Source: an uncultured Bacteroidales bacterium (lineage in GTDB: Bacteria; Bacteroidota; Bacteroidia; Bacteroidales; UBA4417). Taken from it: 64,000 bases of DNA. The position numbers and the translations under genes are program-made. The notes under the pieces are model-generated. The model did no database searches and was not told the DNA's origin. It was given only the letters and a program-made list of their open reading frames with translations. Numbering within the stretch: position 1 is the stretch's first letter; each line of letters begins with the position of its first letter. Positions 49,436-58,647 of this stretch are shown here, piece by piece. Location: positions 129,666 to 193,665 of the forward strand of contig CALBZC010000010.1 of assembly GCA_937889945.1 (NCBI GenBank), in the 5' to 3' direction.

Positions 49436-50131
49436 TTATCCTTTTTGACTTATAAGCTCTAATTGCTTTTCCTCAAGAATTACAATATCTTTATCATGAA
49501 GCAAGATAATGTTTTCCTTTTCAAAAGATTTTAATATCTTAACAGCACTTTCTGTGGTTATTCCTGCAAATTCCGCAATATCTTTACGAGATAAAAGTTG
49601 AAATATTTCGGTATGCTCTTTTTTTAATTCATTCATATATAGCAATACTTCCGCTATTCTACCATTCATCTGTTTGTTTTGGAAAGTATGTAGTTTTTCA
49701 AACAAGGTAGTATTTTGTTCACAATATTTTTTAATAATATCTATACCAAAATTTCCATTATTCCTTATTACCTTTATTATTGCCTCCTTTTCTATTAAAA
49801 ATGCCGTGCATTCGCTAATAGCAATGGTGGAGTATTTAAAAACGTTATCTAAAAATATTGCTGATAATCCAACAAACTCGCCAGGGCGTGTAATTCTCAA
49901 ATTTAAATTCTTATATCCGTCTGATTCTAAATATTGCTTTGCTAAACCCTCCGTAACAAATAGCACATAAGAAGAAAATGCTCCTTGTTTGGTGAGATTG
50001 TCTCCTTTGCGGAAAAGTAACTGCGTACGGCTTGATTTTATTAACTCTAACTCTATAGGTTTAAGCTGCTGAAAGCACGGTGCCGGTATGTTGCATAAAA
50101 AATCAGCATTCGAATGGACAATAGTTTTCAT
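49436..50131 (-). CDS. Crp/Fnr family transcriptional regulator
   Basis: It has a cNMP-binding-like beta-roll and a C-terminal HTH (LSRKDIAEFAGITTESAVKILKSFEKENII). The ATG at 50131 is preferred over the TTG at 50134. Confidence 0.85.
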   Translation of the reverse strand: MKTIVHSNADFLCNIPAPCFQQLKPIELELIKSSRTQLLFRKGDNLTKQGAFSSYVLFVTEGLAKQYLESDGYKNLNLRITRPGEFVGLSAIFLDNVFKYSTIAISECTAFLIEKEAIIKVIRNNGNFGIDIIKKYCEQNTTLFEKLHTFQNKQMNGRIAEVLLYMNELKKEHTEIFQLLSRKDIAEFAGITTESAVKILKSFEKENIILLHDKDIVILEEKQLELISQKG

Positions 50132-50260
50132 CAAAAAAATAAAGGTAACAATTGGATATGCAAAAATAAATAATTTACATCAATAAAAATATTGTTCTAT
50201 TTCAATTAAAGCATTAACAATGTTCAACCCGTCTTTTTTCCTTATTTATTGGAGTGAATA

Positions 50261-50297: not shown

Positions 50298-50642
50298 ATG
50301 TTATTCACAAACTTAAAACACATTTTAACAGCGCAAGAACACGCTAATATACTAAATGAAAATGAAAACGTGATGGTGATATGCGGACGCATGGGACCCA
50401 TGTGTATTCCGGTATACGGGATAGCCGAAGAGCTTGAAAAACAATATCCTCATGTAAAATTTTACGATATGGAATTTGATAATCCTGAGTCGCATGTAAT
50501 ACGTAATTTGCCTGAAGTTCGCAGCTTTATGGGCATCCCATTTGTGATTTATTATAAAAACGGTAAGGTTGTGCATGCCACATCAAGCATACAAACAAAA
50601 GAACAAATTACGTCTATTTTAGACAATGTATTTGGAAAATAA
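50298..50642 (+). CDS. thioredoxin-fold protein with atypical active site (C-GRMGPM-C)
   Basis: 114 aa with thioredoxin-like topology. Where WCGPC is expected the sequence reads VICGRMGPMCIP. Confidence 0.65.
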   Translation: MLFTNLKHILTAQEHANILNENENVMVICGRMGPMCIPVYGIAEELEKQYPHVKFYDMEFDNPESHVIRNLPEVRSFMGIPFVIYYKNGKVVHATSSIQTKEQITSILDNVFGK

Positions 50643-50649
50643 GAATGCC

Positions 50650-51591
50650 ATGGATAAATCAACAGATTATGATGTAATTGTGGTGGGTGCCGGTCCTGCC
50701 GGTCTTACCGCTGCATTATATCTATCAAGAGCTAAAGTTAAAACGCTTGTTATTGATAGTGGTATAGCAGGCGGACAAACCATACTTACCCATGAAATAG
50801 CTAATTATCCCGGCATAGAGCGTATTTCCGGTTATCAATTGGCACATATCATGAAAAAACAAGCTGAAAGTTTTGGAACTGAAATTAAAATCAATGCTGA
50901 AATTGAACGGATAGTTTTAGATCGTCGCATAAAAGAAATAAAGCTTAAAAAGAACGAAAATATATATACCGCTAAAGCGGTAATTTTTTCTTTGGGAGGT
51001 AGGTCGCGTACAATAGGGGCTACAAAAGAGGAATATTTTAAGGGGAAAGGGATTTCGTACTGTGCTACATGTGATGGGGATTTTTTTACAGATAAGGAAA
51101 TTGTGGTAGTGGGTGGAGGAAATTCAGCTTTAGAAGAAGCTGTTTCCCTTACAAAATATGCTTCAAAAGTGACCATAGTACATCAGTTTGACTATTTTCA
51201 GGCTTTTCCTCATGCAATTGAAGAAGCTAAAAAAAATACGAAGATAAATTTTATGTTAAATTCACGTATAACGGCATTTAATGGCGATGAAAAAATTGAA
51301 AGTGTTGACATTGAGAATATTAAAACAAAAGAAATTACACCTTTTAAAACGGACGGTGTATTTATATTTATAGGTTATTTGCCTAATACGGAATTAGTTG
51401 AGCATGCTTTAATGTTAAACGAGTGGAAAGAGATAATCGTAAAGTCGGATATGTCAACCAATGTAGAGGGGGTGTATGCTGCGGGTGATTGTATTAATAA
51501 AAAAATCAGACAGGTAACCACCGCCGTAGCTGATGGAACTGTTGCGGCGTTATCAGCCATTGAATATGTTATGAATTTTAAAAGTAAGTAA
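50650..51591 (+). CDS. thioredoxin reductase-like flavoprotein lacking the NADPH-binding HRRxxxR motif
   Basis: It has the FAD motif VIVVGAGPAGLTAA, the redox-active CATCDG and a second Rossmann VVVGGGNSALEEA. The latter is followed by VHQFDYFQA where HRRDxxRA is expected. The ATG at 50650 (MDKSTDYD) is preferred over the overlapping start at 50626. Confidence 0.8.
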   Translation: MDKSTDYDVIVVGAGPAGLTAALYLSRAKVKTLVIDSGIAGGQTILTHEIANYPGIERISGYQLAHIMKKQAESFGTEIKINAEIERIVLDRRIKEIKLKKNENIYTAKAVIFSLGGRSRTIGATKEEYFKGKGISYCATCDGDFFTDKEIVVVGGGNSALEEAVSLTKYASKVTIVHQFDYFQAFPHAIEEAKKNTKINFMLNSRITAFNGDEKIESVDIENIKTKEITPFKTDGVFIFIGYLPNTELVEHALMLNEWKEIIVKSDMSTNVEGVYAAGDCINKKIRQVTTAVADGTVAALSAIEYVMNFKSK

Positions 51592-51593
51592 AA

Positions 51594-52013
51594 ATGAAAA
51601 TCACATTTATTATAATAGGGGTTATACTCCTTTCTTTTTTATTGCTAAGCTATATTGCCAAAGCACGTTTAAAAAAACTCCCATTGGTAGAGAATCATAA
51701 GAAAATAATTACTTTAACAGCCGCCAATTTTCAAAATCAAGTTAAAAATAAAGTTGTATTAGTAGATTTTTGGGCTAGCTGGTGTGCTCCATGCCGTATG
51801 ATTGCACCCATACTCAACGATTTAGCAGAAGAATCAAAAGGTGATTTTTATGTGGGAAAGGTAAATATTGAAGAGCATCAGGCATTGGCACAGAAGTATA
51901 AGGTAAGAAGTATTCCTACTCTTATTATTTTTAAAAATGGAAAAGAAGCTAAACGTCTAGTGGGAGTGAAGAATAAAGAAGCCTTGCTCAAAGAGTTGCA
52001 AAATATCAAGTAA
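51594..52013 (+). CDS. trxA: membrane-anchored thioredoxin
   Basis: 139 aa. An N-terminal TM helix (ITFIIIGVILLSFLLLSYI) is followed by a canonical Trx domain with WASWCAPCRMIAP. Confidence 0.85.
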   Translation: MKITFIIIGVILLSFLLLSYIAKARLKKLPLVENHKKIITLTAANFQNQVKNKVVLVDFWASWCAPCRMIAPILNDLAEESKGDFYVGKVNIEEHQALAQKYKVRSIPTLIIFKNGKEAKRLVGVKNKEALLKELQNIK

Positions 52014-52129
52014 TTTCCTATGAGCTTGTTTGTATCGTGTGTTTTTTTTAATAAGCTCTTTTAAATACAGTAAATACTTAAAATAGTTAATATAAATTTT
52101 TATAACCAATATTTTAAACCAACATATCT

Positions 52130-52318
52130 ATGAGTTATTCAATTAGTGCATTAGCTTGTCCTCAGGATCATTACTGTCCTTTAATTCGTGTATGTCCTGT
52201 AGATGCTATTTCGCAAAATCGTTCGGGATTGCCTGTTATAGATGATGAAAAATGTATATCCTGCGGTAAATGTCAAAAATATTGCCCGATGCAGGCTGTA
52301 GAAATTAAAAACTATTAA
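52130..52318 (+). CDS. small 4Fe-4S ferredoxin
   Basis: 62 aa. It has one canonical CISCGKCQKYCP motif plus an N-terminal Cys set, C-x6-C-x5-CP. Confidence 0.75.
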   Translation: MSYSISALACPQDHYCPLIRVCPVDAISQNRSGLPVIDDEKCISCGKCQKYCPMQAVEIKNY

Positions 52319-52352: not shown

Positions 52353-52392
52353 AAGAGGGCAAGTATTTTAAATACTTGCCCTCTTTGTTTTA
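52353..52392 (+). terminator. rho-independent terminator after ferredoxin gene
   Basis: 16-bp near-perfect palindrome aagagggcaagtattt / aaatacttgccctctt followed by tgttttattt. Confidence 0.7.
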
Positions 52393-52475: not shown

Positions 52476-53540
52476 TTATTTTATACTTTTTATTTCCGGT
52501 TCTCTTAACTTTATAAAATACATGGCAAACGAGCGGTATAGGAAATGTGTCCATTTACCGAAAGGAACAATAATTAATGCCCATTGAGCCAATACGGTTA
52601 AATGAAATATATACATCCATTTGTTGCTTTCTAAGATATTTAAATCTATGAAAAGTCGTACGCCCAAAGCTGTAAATCCCATTAACAGCAACCAAATTAC
52701 AAAAAACCAATCGGATGGTTTGGACTTCTTAGCTAAGGCTTTCTTTTTTTGCATGCGGTCTTTTACAAAGTCAACTGTAATAACAAATATAAAAGCGCTT
52801 TCAATGTATCCAAGTACGATAATAAATAAGTTTTGGGTATGAAACCAATTTAAAAATACCGTAGTAAAAAGCAATGAAAGGTATGCAATAACGAGGATAA
52901 AGTGTTCTAACCACCGAAAGTGGTTGTCTGTACAATCTTTAGCACGTTTTTGTGTAAACATGTGTATGAACAGTTCATTTAATGCTGTGAAGTAGTTTTT
53001 TAACGGTACGTTTGAGTGTGTTTTAACAACCATAAAATACCACATTCTCATGAGGTTTGGGATAAATATTATTACAAAAACAGCAGCAATAGCAATCATT
53101 TCAAAAAAGTGACCAAATTGCAGCATTTTTTCCACTTCCCACTTTACCGCATTAGCAAAAATTAGTACACCTGCTAATACCATCAACATTGCAGTCAAAA
53201 AAGCCGGTAAATATTTATAAAATAACCCCGAAAGTCCTGTCCAATCATATTGGGCAGTAAGCCACCGGCGTAAAGACATCATCATTTCACCCGGGTCGGC
53301 TTCTCGCGGACATTTTTCAGAGCAGTCGCCACAGTAATAACATTCCCATGGTTCTTTGCTTGTTAAAATTTCTTCTTTTAATCCCAGCATGGAATACCGA
53401 ACAAACATGCGCGGGAAATTAGAATTTTTATTGGTTAAATTGCATACTGCAGTACAGTTGCCACAATTATAGCATGCTTTAAAGTCAAAAGTGCCGTATT
53501 TTTCTATATCTTTCGTTAATTCAGGCTTTATAAGTGCCAT
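52476..53540 (-). CDS. QmoC-like fusion: HdrC-type 2x[4Fe-4S] domain + NarI/DsrM/HdrE-type membrane domain
   Basis: 354 aa. The N-terminal part carries CYNCGNCTAVC and CYYCGDCSEKCP. It is followed by about 6 hydrophobic helices with conserved His residues and ends with PFGKWTHFLYR, like the PF(S/T)K..H end of nitrate-reductase-gamma-like proteins. Confidence 0.7.
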   Translation of the reverse strand: MALIKPELTKDIEKYGTFDFKACYNCGNCTAVCNLTNKNSNFPRMFVRYSMLGLKEEILTSKEPWECYYCGDCSEKCPREADPGEMMMSLRRWLTAQYDWTGLSGLFYKYLPAFLTAMLMVLAGVLIFANAVKWEVEKMLQFGHFFEMIAIAAVFVIIFIPNLMRMWYFMVVKTHSNVPLKNYFTALNELFIHMFTQKRAKDCTDNHFRWLEHFILVIAYLSLLFTTVFLNWFHTQNLFIIVLGYIESAFIFVITVDFVKDRMQKKKALAKKSKPSDWFFVIWLLLMGFTALGVRLFIDLNILESNKWMYIFHLTVLAQWALIIVPFGKWTHFLYRSFAMYFIKLREPEIKSIK

Positions 53541-53546
53541 AACGCG

Positions 53547-53819
53547 TTATTTTTTTAGTTGGTAAATATAATATTCGTCCATATCGTCAATTCCTTCAAC
53601 GCTAACTTCGCCAAATTTTTGGAGCGCCATCAAGTAATAAGTAACTTGGTCAATAGGTAACTGTGTAGCTGCTGAAAGTTGAGGAATTGTTTTTCCTTCA
53701 TTTTTGAGCGCTTCCAGTAATGTTTTGCGCATTTGTACATATTTCTTGCGCTCTTCATTAACATGGGGTAATACAGTACGTTCCTGTTTTATTACATGTA
53801 TAGTCTTAATTTTTTCCAT
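53547..53819 (-). CDS. small winged-helix-like protein, no Cys (operon-internal)
   Basis: 90 aa. The segment RKTLLEALKNEGKTIPQLSAATQLPIDQVTYYLMALQKFGEVS resembles an ArsR/MarR-type wHTH. It lies 6 nt upstream of the QmoC-like gene. Confidence 0.55.
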   Translation of the reverse strand: MEKIKTIHVIKQERTVLPHVNEERKKYVQMRKTLLEALKNEGKTIPQLSAATQLPIDQVTYYLMALQKFGEVSVEGIDDMDEYYIYQLKK

Positions 53820-53915
53820 GAGTTTTTTAATGTGATAATTTAGCTTTGCAACTCTATTAAAAATTTAATTATCTTGTTATTTAATATATTATTTTTTTTA
53901 TTGCCAATCAAGAAA

Positions 53916-55622
53916 TTAGTTTACGAGCGCATCTATCATCCCTTCAATTTGCGGATTAGTAAAGCCGGCTAAATCTATTGCATCTGTAGGGCATACAGGA
54001 GTACACATTCCACATCCTTTACAATTCGAAACATTAACCTTTGCTACTTGCCTATCTTCGTAGTTTACTGTCATTATTGCATCAAACGGACAAGCATTTC
54101 GGCAATTTTCGCATAGTATGCAAGATGCTGGATTTATTTGTGCCAATGTAGGTTCAAGTGTCATTTCTCCTTTTGTTAAAACCGAGTTGGCTTTGGCTGC
54201 AGCCGCTTGCGATGAGTTAAGAGTTTCCAATATATTTTTAGGTGATTGACAAGTGCCGGCAATAAAAACTCCATCAATAACAGTTTCTACAGGACGGAGT
54301 TTCATGTGTATCTCGTTATAAAAATTGTCGCGCCCCACGGGAATTTTTAGCGTATTGATTAACGTGTCATCTTTACGCGAAATCATACCTGTTACAAGTA
54401 CTATTAAATCTACTTCTGCTGTTATTTCTTTTCCGGCAGTGAGTATATCTTTGACTTTTATTAAAGTTTTTCCCTTTACAACTTCTATCTGGGGTTTGTT
54501 TTCGAGGTTAAACTGTATATAGATATCTCCATTTTTACAAGACTCTTCGTATAACAACTCTTGTTTTCCATAGGTGCGAATGCCTCTATTGTAGTGGAAG
54601 TTTATGATATTTCTATATTTTTGTTTAGCTTCGATTGCAACATGTATAGCAGCGGTACAGCAATAGCGCGAGCAATATTTATTTTCTCCTTCATCATCTT
54701 GCCGACTTCCCACGCAATAGATATAAGCTACTTTTTTTATTATTTTCCCATTGTGAATTAGTTCTTTATCGGATTTTTCTATTAAGTTTTTGAAATCCGG
54801 TAAAGTAATTACATTTTCGAGCACATTATATCCATATTCGCTTTGCAGGGGTTGGTATGATTCAAAACCGGTGTTAACTATAACAGCTCCAACATGAAGC
54901 GGCAAAATTTCTTTATCTATCTTTACCTTAATATTAAAATTTCCGATGCTACCTGTTTTTTCTATAACTTCGGCATTTGTGAAAATTTTAATATTGGTGT
55001 GTTTTAATATTTGAGAGTATAAAGAGTTAATAATATCAGAGCCTTTATCGTTGCTGGTAAATAATTTATCCCATTGTGCAATATGACCTCCAATTTTAGA
55101 TTCTTTTTCAATTAAATATACTTCTGTTCCCATTTCAGCTAAAGATATAGCAGAACGTAAACCTCCGATTCCGCCCCCTATGACTGCAGCAACATTTACA
55201 GCAGGTATTTTAACAGGTGTCAAAGCTTCTGATTCTCGTGCTTTGGCAATAGCTGCTTTTACCAGTTGAATGGCTTTTTCTGTGGCTCCTACAGGATTAT
55301 CCGAATGAGCCCACGAGCTTTGTTCGCGAATGTTAGCTTGTACATAATTGTAAGGATTTAAACCGGCTCTTTGTGCAACACCTCTAAATGTAGGCACATG
55401 GAGCTTTGGAGAACAAGAGGCAACAACAATAGCGTCAAGTTCGCTTTCTTGTATATCATGTTCTATTTCTTTTTGAGATGAATCAGAGCATGCAAAAAGA
55501 GTATTTTTTACCAGATATACGTCGGCTTCTTCTTTTACGGCTTCTTTTACTTTCTCTATATCCACATAATCGGAAATATTGCCCCCACAATGGCAAACAT
55601 ATACGCCTATTTTTTTCTTCAT
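53916..55622 (-). CDS. HdrA/QmoB-like FAD and Fe-S oxidoreductase
   Basis: 568 aa. It has the N-terminal IGVYVCHCGGNISDYVD block, the FAD motif AAVIGGGIGGLRSA and the HdrA signature CVGSRQ...YCSRYCC. The C-terminal ferredoxin motifs are CILCENCRNACP and CKGCGMCTPVCP. Confidence 0.8.
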   Translation of the reverse strand: MKKKIGVYVCHCGGNISDYVDIEKVKEAVKEEADVYLVKNTLFACSDSSQKEIEHDIQESELDAIVVASCSPKLHVPTFRGVAQRAGLNPYNYVQANIREQSSWAHSDNPVGATEKAIQLVKAAIAKARESEALTPVKIPAVNVAAVIGGGIGGLRSAISLAEMGTEVYLIEKESKIGGHIAQWDKLFTSNDKGSDIINSLYSQILKHTNIKIFTNAEVIEKTGSIGNFNIKVKIDKEILPLHVGAVIVNTGFESYQPLQSEYGYNVLENVITLPDFKNLIEKSDKELIHNGKIIKKVAYIYCVGSRQDDEGENKYCSRYCCTAAIHVAIEAKQKYRNIINFHYNRGIRTYGKQELLYEESCKNGDIYIQFNLENKPQIEVVKGKTLIKVKDILTAGKEITAEVDLIVLVTGMISRKDDTLINTLKIPVGRDNFYNEIHMKLRPVETVIDGVFIAGTCQSPKNILETLNSSQAAAAKANSVLTKGEMTLEPTLAQINPASCILCENCRNACPFDAIMTVNYEDRQVAKVNVSNCKGCGMCTPVCPTDAIDLAGFTNPQIEGMIDALVN

Positions 55623-56935
55623 GATAATTGATTTAAATAACCTGAAACTTCAGCAGCAGCAGCGCCTGCCGACATAATGGTATCTGGTATATCCATAGGA
55701 GCGGTGGCGGTTCCGGCAGCAAAAACACCTTCAATAGATGTTATAGCCGGACTTTGTAGCAAGTTTGTTTGTTTTACGTAGTTAATTTCGTCTGTTTTCA
55801 GGATCTTGTTTTTGAAAGCCTTTGTAACGGAAGAGTTAGCTAATAAACCTACGGATAAGACAACTAAGTCGTGCTCGCTTTCTGAAACTTCTCCTGTTTC
55901 AATATTTTCATAGCGTAATATAAGGTTTCCATTTTCCTTTTCGGAAATAGAAGCTATTTTACCTTTTACGAAGTTGGCGCCCATATCCTTTGCTTGCATA
56001 TAAAATTCATTAAACCCTTTTCCAAAAGCCCTGATATTGATATAGTACATGCTTATGTCTGCCATAGGTAAAGCCCCCATCAGCAATTGCGATTGTTTTA
56101 TGGAGTACATACAACAAACTTGCGAACAAATAGGGTTTCCGATGGTATGATCACGGGAACCCGTACAAAATACATACGCTATTTTATCTGGAACTTTTCC
56201 GTCCGATGGGCGCAATATATTGTTAAACGGGCGCGTTGGGGCTAACTGGCGTTCCATTTGCATGGAGGTAATTACATTTTTGTATTTTCCATAACCATAG
56301 CGCTCAATATGAATAGGATCAAATAATTTAAATCCTGTAGCCACTATAACTGATTTTACCTTTACACTAATGATTTGTTCTTTTTGGGTAAAATCAATAG
56401 CATTGGATGGACACTTTTGTTCGCAGGCGCCACATAACATGCAGTTATCAATATCAATAAGCGCAATGCGTGGATTGGCTATATTAAAAGGGATATAAAC
56501 TGCTTTTCGGGCTACCAAATTCATTTGAAATTGGTCGTGAACTACTGACGGACACACGGTTTCGCATTCCTGACAGCCGGTGCAATCTTGTTCTACTACG
56601 TATCTGGGGCGTTTTTTTAGGGTAATGGAAAAAGTATTATCAACTTCTTTGATAATGCTTTCGGGTTCTGTAAGTGTAAATAGAGTGATATTAGGGTGCC
56701 TTGCCGTTTCGGATACTTTGGGTGTTGTTATACAGGCAGCGCAATCCAATGTAGGGAAAACCTTACTTAAAAGTATCATTTTTCCTCCTATAGAAGGCTC
56801 TTTTTCCACCAACAGAACCTTAAAGCCCATGTCGGCAAGCTTCAATGCAGATTCTTCTCCGGCAATGCCGGCGCCTATTATCAAAACATCGTAATCGGCA
56901 CTCATGGAGTTTAGGTTTTTACTAACTGTTTGCAT
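55619..56935 (-). CDS. HdrA/QmoA-like FAD and Fe-S oxidoreductase
   Basis: 438 aa. It has the FAD motif VLIIGAGIAGEESA, CAACITTPK, inserted ferredoxin motifs CTGCQECETVCP and CMLCGACEQKCP, and the HdrA signature CTGSRD...ICSQVCC. It overlaps the next gene by 4 nt. An alternative start is at 56905. Confidence 0.8.
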   Translation of the reverse strand: MQTVSKNLNSMSADYDVLIIGAGIAGEESALKLADMGFKVLLVEKEPSIGGKMILLSKVFPTLDCAACITTPKVSETARHPNITLFTLTEPESIIKEVDNTFSITLKKRPRYVVEQDCTGCQECETVCPSVVHDQFQMNLVARKAVYIPFNIANPRIALIDIDNCMLCGACEQKCPSNAIDFTQKEQIISVKVKSVIVATGFKLFDPIHIERYGYGKYKNVITSMQMERQLAPTRPFNNILRPSDGKVPDKIAYVFCTGSRDHTIGNPICSQVCCMYSIKQSQLLMGALPMADISMYYINIRAFGKGFNEFYMQAKDMGANFVKGKIASISEKENGNLILRYENIETGEVSESEHDLVVLSVGLLANSSVTKAFKNKILKTDEINYVKQTNLLQSPAITSIEGVFAAGTATAPMDIPDTIMSAGAAAAEVSGYLNQLS

Positions 56936-57329
56936 GCGTTTCTATAATCTTTTCTAAATCTTTAACAAAGCTTTGCATATGTTTTACAAAAGGCTCGGCA
57001 CAAACAGAGCAAATGGCAGCCATTTTCAATTGTGAAGGCTGTAAACCTTTTTCACGCATAAGCTTTTGTGTGTTCATCACTATTTGCGAGGTTTTTTCTC
57101 CGCAGGATTCTCCGTATGAGCAATCTGTACCATCAGCAGCTATAAATACTCCATCAAATCCTTTTTCATAAGCCCGCATAATCCAACGGGGCTTGATGCA
57201 ACTTGAGCAAGGCACACTAATGGTATATACGCTTGCAGGATAATGCTTTTTTAGCAATCCTGCAAGGTCAATGGCGGGGTCTGATATTTTTTCGGTCGAA
57301 AAAACCAGTATTTTAGGCTGTGTAGCCAT
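56922..57329 (-). CDS. MvhD/FlpD-like hydrogenase iron-sulfur (delta) subunit family protein
   Basis: 135 aa. The Cys pattern VPCSSC...GFDGVFIAADGTDCSYGESC...ICSVC is as in methyl-viologen-reducing hydrogenase delta subunit-like proteins. Confidence 0.7.
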   Translation of the reverse strand: MATQPKILVFSTEKISDPAIDLAGLLKKHYPASVYTISVPCSSCIKPRWIMRAYEKGFDGVFIAADGTDCSYGESCGEKTSQIVMNTQKLMREKGLQPSQLKMAAICSVCAEPFVKHMQSFVKDLEKIIETHANS

Positions 57330-57333
57330 ATCT

Positions 57334-57585
57334 TTATTGTTTTTTTAGGAATAGTCTATAAATGCCGTCTTCGTCTATAGAACCAAAATATTCATAGTTC
57401 ATTTTATTGCACCATTTTGGAATATCACTTTTTGTTCCTTCGTCAGAAGAAAGTATTTCCATAATTTGTCCTGCTTGGATATCAGCAACACCTTTTTTTG
57501 CAGCCAAAAGTGGTCCCGGACATGCTGTTCCACGTGCGTCAATAGTTTTGTCAACTTTTAAAGCTTTTAATTCTTCTGTTGTCAT
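57334..57585 (-). CDS. tusA: TusA-like sulfurtransferase (sulfur carrier)
   Basis: 83 aa. It has the hallmark DARGTACPGPLL motif (CPxP). Confidence 0.85.
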   Translation of the reverse strand: MTTEELKALKVDKTIDARGTACPGPLLAAKKGVADIQAGQIMEILSSDEGTKSDIPKWCNKMNYEYFGSIDEDGIYRLFLKKQ

Positions 57586-57714
57586 ACGTTTATTCTCCTA
57601 TTTTTAGTTATTAAATTAATTTTTAGTCGTAGTTGGGAATGATAGGGGGCAGGAGCAAAATTGTAAAATAGAATTTTTAATTTCGGACTCAAGACTCCTT
57701 TCTCCCTGTTTTTT

Positions 57715-58263
57715 TTAAATAAATAATTGGATTCGGCTTTCGCTCGCATCTGAAAGATAAGTGCCTACACCTACATAACTTAGATGGGAGTAGTTAATCA
57801 TTTCTTCTTTTTTGAAACCCATTAAATCCATTGACATTTGGCAAATATTAATTTCAACACCCAGTTCGTCTGCTGTTTTAATAAGTTCTTCGAGCGAAGC
57901 TACATTTTTCTTTTTCATCAAACCTTTCATCATAGATGTTCCCATTCCAGCCATATTCATTTTGGAAAGTTTTAGTTTGGTACTCCCTTTGGGGAGCATA
58001 ACACCAAACATTTTGGACATGAAATCTTTTCCAGAAACGTTTTTCTTTTTGTCGCGTAACATGGCTGTACCCCAAAAGGTGAAAAACATTCTCACTTCCA
58101 TATCCATTGCCCTAGCTCCGGTGGCTATTATCATGGATGCCAATACTTTATCCAAATCGCCCGAAAAAACGATAATGGAAAGTTGGTCTTTTTGTTGATT
58201 CCCTTGCAGCGCTTTTATCTGTTGCTCCAGTATTTTTACTTGATTTTCTAACTCTGTTGACAT
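57715..58263 (-). CDS. DsrE/DsrF/DrsH-like family protein (DsrE2-type, soluble)
   Basis: 182 aa. It has the blocks LSIIVFSGDLDKVLASMIIATGA, MFFTFWG and ICQMSMDLMG, the last with a conserved Cys, as recalled for this family. Confidence 0.7.
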   Translation of the reverse strand: MSTELENQVKILEQQIKALQGNQQKDQLSIIVFSGDLDKVLASMIIATGARAMDMEVRMFFTFWGTAMLRDKKKNVSGKDFMSKMFGVMLPKGSTKLKLSKMNMAGMGTSMMKGLMKKKNVASLEELIKTADELGVEINICQMSMDLMGFKKEEMINYSHLSYVGVGTYLSDASESRIQLFI

Positions 58264-58275
58264 GATATTTTTTTA

Positions 58276-58647
58276 TTAGTAGGTTATAACCGATTTTGCC
58301 GATAAAGATTCTGTTACAATAGTTCCGGCAGCAATAATTTCACAACCTTCAATAAGATCTTCTTTAGCAATGCTACGTTCTTTTAAGCAAGGCGAACAAA
58401 GTTTTAATGTTCCCCCCATTTCTATATAGCTATTAATTAACTCATGTAAAGGCAAGAATCCGGGAGCTTGTATTTTTTCCGCTTCTCCTTTTTTTGCCAA
58501 TACAACTGCCGAGGATTGCAAGAAAATAACTACTTCAACATCACTTGCTTGTGCTGCTGTTGCTAAGACAAAAGGCAAGGTGGCTTTTTCGGGATTTTCT
58601 TGACCAATAGTATCAATAATTACGATTTTTTCTTTTTGAGTTTCCAT
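58276..58647 (-). CDS. DsrE family sulfur-relay protein
   Basis: 123 aa with a YchN/DsrE-like fold pattern (IVIIDT..., VVIFLQSSAV) and the Cys pair LKLCSPC. Confidence 0.7.
   Translation of the reverse strand: METQKEKIVIIDTIGQENPEKATLPFVLATAAQASDVEVVIFLQSSAVVLAKKGEAEKIQAPGFLPLHELINSYIEMGGTLKLCSPCLKERSIAKEDLIEGCEIIAAGTIVTESLSAKSVITY

Follow-up and report, generated by a model that had tools for sequence, protein, structure and literature searches.

A widely conserved second thioredoxin system of anaerobic Bacteroidales with a reductase that lacks the NADPH 2′-phosphate motif

Here, we describe a four-gene thioredoxin cassette at positions 50298–52318 of a 64,000-nucleotide stretch of DNA (the window; contig CALBZC010000010.1 of assembly GCA_937889945.1) from an uncultured Bacteroidales bacterium, and confirm that anaerobic Bacteroidales have here a real, widely conserved and unstudied second thioredoxin system. 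At its core lies a translationally coupled gene pair, trxL–trxR, which encodes an atypical thioredoxin-fold protein and a thioredoxin reductase paralogue (TrxR) whose NADPH 2′-phosphate site is, as judged from its sequence, gone. We propose, with about even credence, that the cassette would be an accessory thioredoxin system controlled by a Crp/Fnr-family regulator and driven by NADH, its ferredoxin being an optional part of that regulon.

All four open reading frames of this plus-strand set were reproduced by ORF calling. The first gene, trxL (50298–50642), encodes a 114-amino-acid (aa) thioredoxin-fold protein with C29-GRMGPM-C36 where WCGPC is expected, and its end overlaps by 17 nucleotides (nt) the start of trxR (50626–51591), which encodes a 321-aa low-Mr FAD-dependent thioredoxin reductase paralogue in which HRRDxxRA has become HQFDYFQA. 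They are followed by trx139 (51594–52013), encoding a 139-aa thioredoxin with WCAPC and an N-terminal hydrophobic segment as membrane anchor, and by fd62 (52130–52318), encoding a 62-aa ferredoxin with seven cysteines. A first-pass annotation of the same DNA, made without database searches, had placed these genes correctly and described a non-canonical thioredoxin system with an atypical thioredoxin-fold protein under a divergent Crp/Fnr regulator, which proved genuine; its further proposal, that the reductase is independent of pyridine nucleotides and linked to ferredoxin, is weighed below.

The reductase carries the features of low-Mr thioredoxin reductases (TrxB), namely the FAD-binding GxGxxG, the CATC redox disulfide, and the G[R/K]G and FF residues, and it passes the TIGR01292 family model, if barely (344.9 bits, cut-off 343.45). 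Its motifs include CATCDG, GGGNSALEEA and VTIVHQFDYFQAF. As annotated earlier, the arginines that bind the 2′-phosphate are replaced: in an alignment with Escherichia coli TrxB, R176, R177 and R181 correspond to Q187, F188 and Q192, and the same columns read HRRDGFRA in E. coli, VRRDELRA in the organism's own canonical TrxB and HQFDYFQA in the window TrxR. The segment VTIVHQFDYFQA does not match VxxxHRRDx[F/L]R, the 2′-phosphate motif of NADPH-dependent thioredoxin reductases (NTRs), and this is the same across 120 clusters of homologues. The His and Asp of the motif are kept, its net charge goes from positive to negative, and the alignment reveals no basic residue in the motif that would compensate for the lost arginines.

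This loss is fixed across homologues and is thus not one-off decay, as uncharged residues have taken the place of each of the three phosphate-binding arginines in more than 100 clusters. Among 120 clusters at 62–70% identity to the window TrxR, CATCDG is present in all 120, GGGNSALEEA in 118 and HQFD[HY]FQAF in most. When 25 diverse members were aligned (mean column identity 78%), H186, Q187, F188, F191, Q192, A193 and F194 were invariant, which argues that the remodelled pocket is under selection and has not been abandoned. Equally invariant in the family are G21–G26 of the FAD motif, C146/C149, and the thioredoxin-docking GKG (K139-G140-x-G142) and FF (F153/F154) residues. The C-terminal tail after the last helix varies in length and sequence among orthologues, with no conserved aromatic tail of the DTR type. 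Source annotations of the homologues read 'thioredoxin reductase (NADPH)', which are automatic labels.

The host genome (2.7 Mb, 97% complete) encodes a canonical trxB on another contig (C9), which scores 400 bits against TIGR01292, reads VRRDELRA and is 33–34% identical to the window TrxR, which makes the window gene an accessory paralogue. Near-identical copies of the window DNA occur in metagenomes from bioreactor sludge and wastewater, and the host of the cassette is an anaerobe from these habitats.

The first-pass annotation took the loss of HRRxxxR as the hallmark of a ferredoxin-linked enzyme. That premise finds no support, because flavin thioredoxin reductases that depend on ferredoxin (FFTRs) have lost GxGxxA, the pyrophosphate (PP) loop, as well, and reductases listed as NADH enzymes are also without HRR. 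FFTRs are defined by having neither GxGxxA nor HRRxxxR, plus clustering with clostridial FFTRs (PMC10880999), and cyanobacterial FFTRs and DDORs are all without GxGxxA/G (PMC9025218). According to Valette et al. 2017 (PMC5627308), GGGxxAxE, the PP loop, shows high conservation in the NADPH enzyme TR1 and the NADH-preferring TR3; in the NAD(P)H-independent TRi it has degenerated, and in the clostridial ferredoxin and F420 thioredoxin reductases it is less well conserved. HRR is missing from all non-NADPH enzymes, including the NADH enzymes Desulfovibrio vulgaris TR3 (DvTR3) and Thermotoga maritima TR, and the three arginines make seven salt bridges that are needed for 2′-phosphate binding (PMC5627308). 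The Thermoplasma acidophilum TR, which has no HRRxxxR, was initially termed nucleotide-independent, and its use of NADH was shown later (PMC6262447). We read an invariant PP loop with a lost HRR as the probable signature of a dinucleotide-using, non-NADPH enzyme and not of an FFTR.

With canonical NADPH TrxBs (such as D. radiodurans 2q7v, B. cereus 7aaw, S. aureus 4gcm and E. coli 1tde), the window TrxR gives full-length, gap-free alignments (37–40% identity to the best structures, Foldseek) and shares the FAD motif, CATC, the GKG/FF docking residues and the GGGNSA..EE loop; it differs from them in having HQFD[HY]FQA for HRRDxxRA, with all three 2′-phosphate arginines lost, in its pairing with TrxL and in being accessory to a canonical TrxB. 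The absence of HRR is common to the NADH-preferring enzymes, that is DvTR3 with the clostridial dcTR1 group, T. maritima TR and T. acidophilum TR (PMC5627308, PMC6262447); the TR3 group is reported to retain the PP loop, and DvTR3 also has a dedicated non-canonical thioredoxin encoded alongside (PMC5627308). TR3 and dcTR1 are further marked by a Ser-to-His change in VSY and by altered thioredoxin-docking residues, which are CxQ and P in TR3 and M in dcTR1 (Valette et al. 2017, PMC5627308). Judged by these descriptions and not by real TR3 or dcTR1 sequences, the window TrxR keeps the PP loop and lacks HRR, but its subclade retains the canonical ISY, GKG and FF that TR3 has lost, and is paired with the CGRMGPMC protein instead of Trx3 or a glutaredoxin-like protein.

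A sequence search of the PDB gave 237 bits to the NTRs of Deinococcus radiodurans, Bacillus cereus and Staphylococcus aureus, 227 to Thermosipho africanus TrxR (7jyp), 186 to T. acidophilum TR (3cty), 176 to the Gloeobacter DTR/FFTR (5j60), 112 to the Clostridium acetobutylicum FFTR (6gna) and 98.6 to DvTRi (5nii). A Foldseek search with the AlphaFold2 (AF2) model of TrxR, at a predicted local distance difference test score (pLDDT) of 74.5, likewise returned NTRs at the top; the cyanobacterial 6xtf ranked 38th with a template modelling score (TM) of 0.52, and the clostridial FFTR (CaFFTR) was absent from the top 50 matches. Clostridial (6gna/6gnd) and cyanobacterial (5j60/6xtf) FFTR/DTRs resemble the window TrxR as TrxR-derived flavoenzymes without HRRxxxR that occur in anaerobes or as extra copies of TrxB. 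They differ from it in the loss of GxGxxA, retained here as GGGNSA; the clostridial enzyme is also shorter (288 aa), and the cyanobacterial enzyme, studied in Gloeobacter, binds ferredoxin via an essential C-terminal Trp tail (PMC8154056). We rejected membership in the clostridial type on the invariant GxGxxA and on 112 bits to 6gna against 237 to NTRs, and in the cyanobacterial FFTR/DTR type on the variable tails, the 176 bits to 5j60 and the rank and TM of 6xtf. DvTRi is, like the window TrxR, an accessory paralogue of an anaerobe, reported to be up-regulated on O2 exposure and to act on canonical thioredoxin (PMC5627308); it is monocistronic, and both of its nucleotide motifs are degenerate (GEGxxAxN and TQ/NGK), unlike HQFD with GGGNSALEEA, and TRi membership was rejected on these motifs and on 98.6 bits to 5nii.

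To place the reductase more broadly, we searched 1.84 billion cluster representatives with HMMER and built a FastTree phylogeny of 147 near-full-length matches and 4 added references. The tree, which holds no FFTR or DTR, puts nine of the ten HQFD-type sequences together in a clade of 11 representatives with an SH-like support of 99, and this clade is nested within the HRR-bearing NTR radiation. The clade holds standalone enzymes, 422–435-aa forms with an N-terminal thioredoxin domain, and a Clostridium type (GNG-IHY-CELC-DGAMY), and GGGN[SA]A is retained in every member, even at less than 50% identity. Names among the cluster members are nearly all 'Bacteroidales/Bacteroidetes bacterium', plus one Clostridium sp., and a search of genome contigs with a single cassette protein gave only one match, actinobacterial and unrelated. 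By its IHY and AMY, the Clostridium member matches what has been published on dcTR1 (Ser changed to His ahead of CxxC and Met at a thioredoxin-docking Phe position), a comparison made by description only. The weakly supported sister group of the clade (support 89) has [E/Q]xLPxxTA, resembling VQNLPYLTA of Thermosipho 7jyp.

Several other reductases came up alongside. 7jyp itself is also without HRRxxxR, reading VQNLPYLTA with GGGDSA retained, and we found no paper on its cofactor preference. A further TrxR-like clade of 398–417 aa among the nearest 150 cluster representatives (P0253, P0254, P0267, P0283, P0297, P0310 and P0391) combines G[AS]GNxA with a VVIHEEGxxDC-type motif in place of HRRDxxRA. 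In many relatives, a second HQFD-type reductase of 422–428 aa lies 3–6 kb from the cassette (L018:8160–9428 on the minus strand, L019:11745–13013, L020:6049–7317, L023:6923–8191 and L035:2583–3869); it consists of an N-terminal thioredoxin domain (ECPPC) and a TrxR domain (CATCDA, HQFDAF), matches Pfam Thioredoxin and Pyr_redox_2, and is not present in the window's own genome. The fused domain of the 422-aa paralogue is nearer to ordinary thioredoxins than to TrxL and thus gives no Rosetta-stone support for TrxL as a substrate of the reductase.

TrxL is the more unusual half of the pair. Its AF2 model has a classic thioredoxin fold (pLDDT 90; TM 0.78–0.86 to real thioredoxins at roughly 20% identity), and its sequence fails the thioredoxin family models (17.4 bits against 23.5 for PF00085; 23.7 against 96.8 for TIGR01068). 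Near-invariant in the family are NENVMV[IC]CGRMGPMC[IVL]PVY, the cis-Pro loop and an ATSSIQ motif, the first Cys of the active-site motif being shifted one position earlier in three sequences; each chain has just two Cys. How the motif lines up with WCxPC is ambiguous between hhalign, which places C29 on the nucleophilic Cys (44% probability), and the secondary structure of the AF2 model, which has C36 at the N terminus of helix 2. If residues are counted backwards starting where helix 2 ends, the GP pairs match and both catalytic Cys become Met. The chemistry may be that of a C-x6-C dithiol, of a monothiol or of a metal site. A predicted complex of TrxR and TrxL, both entered as alignments, scored 0.08 against a mark of 0.32 and speaks neither for nor against binding.

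At an orthologue threshold of E ≤ 1e-95, TrxR is found in 63 of 292 sampled high-quality genomes from the order; counted over the full sample of 301 genomes, it reaches 50 of 199 genera. TrxL lies directly upstream of it in 45 of 46 loci, each from a different genome. Outside the order, TrxL occurs at 63–75% identity in three families (f161, f166 and f175), and was not found in the largest other sampled families of the phylum (0/86, 0/61, 0/28 and 0/21 genomes). It is also present in a record from a Proteiniphilum sp.

The ferredoxin follows a different pattern. Fd62 matches Pfam Fer4 and LdpA_Fe-S-bd, and its family (60–62 aa in the alignment) keeps seven Cys in CPQ[ND]H[RY]CP-x4-CP ... CxxCGKCxxxC[PG]. 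An fd62 orthologue lies within 6.5 kb of trxR in 3 of the 46 loci. With orthologues called at E ≤ 1e-16, 59 of the 63 TrxR genomes have no Fd62 orthologue; conversely, 20 of the 24 sampled genomes with Fd62 have no TrxR, and the four that have both compare with about five expected if the two were independent. We then examined 20 loci centred on Fd62 (L069–L088), 19 from genomes without the reductase and one from a genome with the reductase on another contig. In 15 of these, a thioredoxin gene lies on the same strand within about 1.1 kb, encoding membrane-anchored, soluble 99-aa, lipoprotein-like or 120-aa types. These counts indicate that the conserved associate of the ferredoxin is a thioredoxin together with the Crp/Fnr regulator of this cassette, not the reductase, and we infer that Fd62 is not the obligate electron donor of TrxR. 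The ferredoxin–thioredoxin gene pair thus occurs without a dedicated reductase, often with the same Crp/Fnr regulator nearby.

The regulator gene (49436–50134, minus strand; Pfam cNMP_binding and HTH_Crp_2) is divergent from the thioredoxin operon, as the first-pass annotation described. Its orthologues are divergent upstream of trxL in about 30 of the 46 related loci (44–61% identity), and divergent from trx–fd62 pairs in four loci from genomes without the reductase (53–59% identity). Inspection of the spacers by eye first suggested a CAAY-N6-RTTG pattern with an A-rich spacer, which in the window reads CAATAAAAATATTG (50181–50194), 117 nt 5′ of trxL. It occurs in 7 of 11 short Crp–trxL spacers, mostly about 115–125 nt upstream of trxL, and in 2 of 4 Crp–trx–fd62 spacers, a strong enrichment over the genome background (0.127 per kb in the own genome). 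A generic search for exact 5-mer inverted repeats found nothing shared among the Crp–trxL spacers, and the CRP-type operator TGTGA-N6-TCACA is absent from the promoters of trxL and fd62. We infer that CAAY-N6-RTTG is a candidate operator of this regulator; a shared regulator and candidate operator would fit one regulon of modular content. Trx139 is an ordinary thioredoxin by family models (Pfam Thioredoxin 110.9 bits, TIGR01068 124 bits), and in about 25 of the 46 loci an orthologue that shares its N-terminal helix is encoded downstream of TrxR. Basic residues after the anchor helix predict, by the positive-inside rule, that its domain is cytoplasmic.

Under the NADH reading, the Crp/Fnr regulator would turn the operon on under redox stress via the CAAY-N6-RTTG site. 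At the dinucleotide cleft that TrxR has kept, NADH would then pass a hydride to FAD, being chosen over NADPH with the arginines gone and the motif Asp left uncompensated, and the reduced flavin would pass electrons to C146/C149. Docking thioredoxin through its GKG and FF residues, TrxR would reduce the membrane-tethered Trx139, the C29/C36 pair of TrxL, or both, and these would in turn, under redox stress, reduce disulfides on the membrane's inner face; the ferredoxin would be an optional member of the same regulon, with a thioredoxin gene as its conserved partner. We favour this reading because the PP loop is kept, the remodelled pocket and the docking residues are invariant, and HRR-less reductases listed as NADH enzymes exist, and also because scores and fold are NTR-like, the HQFD clade lies inside the NTR radiation, the synteny partner is TrxL and not Fd62, and the genome has its own canonical trxB.

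Several points weigh against the NADH reading. The NADH-specific AhpF of E. coli reads LLEFAPEMKA where the window TrxR reads IVHQFDYFQA, without an AhpF-type acidic residue at the end of β2. The likeness to proven NADH enzymes (DvTR3, TmTR and TaTR) appears from text descriptions and one Thermotogae structure, we found no paper on any member of the HQFD clade, and the tree has local SH-like supports only and no FFTR, DTR, TR3, TmTR or TaTR references among its sequences. TrxR and fd62 lie within 4.2 kb of each other in three of the four further sampled genomes that carry the two genes, as well as in the window's genome, and fd62 appears to share the regulator and candidate operator elsewhere; some functional tie of the ferredoxin to the thiol system is real at some level. 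To our knowledge, the genes of clostridial FFTRs do not lie beside those of their ferredoxins either, which makes rare adjacency a weak argument against ferredoxin as a donor.

The proposal of the first-pass annotation is that TrxR takes electrons without a pyridine nucleotide from the adjacent ferredoxin or from another ferredoxin or flavodoxin, which would make it a third independent FFTR-like lineage. The part of it that stands is the loss of the NADPH site; beyond the arginine triad and the close spacing of the two genes where both occur, it draws on the missing hairpin between trx139 and fd62, the plentiful reduced ferredoxin of a sludge or wastewater anaerobe, and the precedent of DvTRi, an NTR-derived paralogue that gave up NAD(P)H (PMC5627308). 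What is not supported is the link to ferredoxin, given a PP loop that is invariant, unlike in all described FFTR, DTR, DDOR, TRi and DFTR enzymes (PMC9025218, PMC10880999, PMC5627308), the low similarity to FFTRs, the absence of a conserved aromatic tail, and the two distributions, in which each gene mostly occurs without the other. In addition, Fd62 is roughly charge-neutral and the pocket has lost three basic residues, which, as far as the sequences tell, is a poor fit to docking of an acidic ferredoxin; we consider ferredoxin donation unlikely. Residual or dual-specificity use of NADPH, in which TrxR is a redundant stress-induced TrxB and the motif merely lowers the affinity, fits the retained PP loop, His and Asp, the TIGR01292 score just over the cut-off and the automatic NADPH labels. 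It is hard to square with the exchange of all three arginines for uncharged residues in more than 100 clusters, with the reversed charge of the motif and with the described need for seven salt bridges (PMC5627308), and strikes us as improbable.

TrxL could, instead of serving as a dithiol substrate, be a metal- or Fe-S-binding thioredoxin-fold subunit whose Cys/Met loop (C-GR-M-GP-M-C) feeds or gates electrons into TrxR. Both catalytic positions may be Met between two invariant flanking Cys, the first Cys is one position off in some members, TrxL is strictly coupled to TrxR (45 of 46 loci), and the normal thioredoxin substrate has a gene of its own. Set against this are a chain with just two Cys, an uncertain register in which hhalign puts C29 on the nucleophilic Cys, and a fold and cis-Pro loop like those of ordinary redox-active thioredoxins, and we hold such a cofactor-bearing role to be highly improbable. 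That the HQFD reductase and TrxL together form a new kind of thioredoxin reductase without pyridine nucleotide, either through a metal or Fe-S site in TrxL or through a relay from ferredoxin via thioredoxin to the flavin, is in our view a rather unlikely prospect; if true, this would be a third independent route by which ferredoxin-level reductant reaches thioredoxin, in Bacteroidota.

Downstream of the cassette, a strong bidirectional terminator hairpin (52353–52385; 15-bp stem with 6 GC pairs, then a T run) ends both the thioredoxin operon and a convergent Qmo-like operon. No hairpin was found in the gap between trx139 and fd62, and fd62 is probably co-transcribed with the thioredoxin operon here. 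None of the listed sequencing runs that contain this DNA is recorded as RNA. Two wastewater runs labelled RNA-Seq, from one study and possibly DNA, yielded short contigs over the Crp gene, trxL, the 5′ part of trxR, and trx139 to 52063, and zero contigs for fd62, which is unusable as evidence on expression or co-transcription. The convergent operon (52476–58647, minus strand) encodes a QmoC-like membrane Fe-S protein, two HdrA/Qmo-like flavoproteins, a FlpD/MvhD-like protein, TusA and two DsrE-family proteins, in agreement with the Hdr/TusA/DsrE operon described earlier; between its HdrA-like and QmoC-like genes lies a 90-aa open reading frame (53547–53819, minus strand) with no significant family match. 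The idea that the two operons form a shared module finds weak support. Across about 66 loci examined (including L040, L041 and L077), the adjacency is clear in two genomes, G294, where the Qmo/Hdr-like TusA/DsrE cluster again adjoins the trx cassette, and G276, where a thioredoxin and an Fd62 orthologue come after Qmo-like genes on the same strand, and partial in a third, G301, with a QmoC-like gene 6.3 kb away.

For annotation, the loss of HRRxxxR alone is insufficient to assign ferredoxin dependence, and the pyrophosphate loop must be checked too. For the organisms, Bacteroidales are thought to rely on one NADPH TrxB for thiol homeostasis, and a trxB mutant of Bacteroides fragilis is described, in the passage of PMC5627308 that cites Rocha et al. 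2007, as unable to grow without cysteine or dithiothreitol. About one-fifth of the sampled high-quality Bacteroidales genomes have a second, separately regulated thioredoxin system, with a reductase of apparently different coenzyme chemistry and a thioredoxin-fold partner with a CGRMGPMC active site. If this system is driven by NADH, it would tie the repair of disulfides at the membrane to the catabolic NADH pool and would help to explain the air tolerance of obligate anaerobes.

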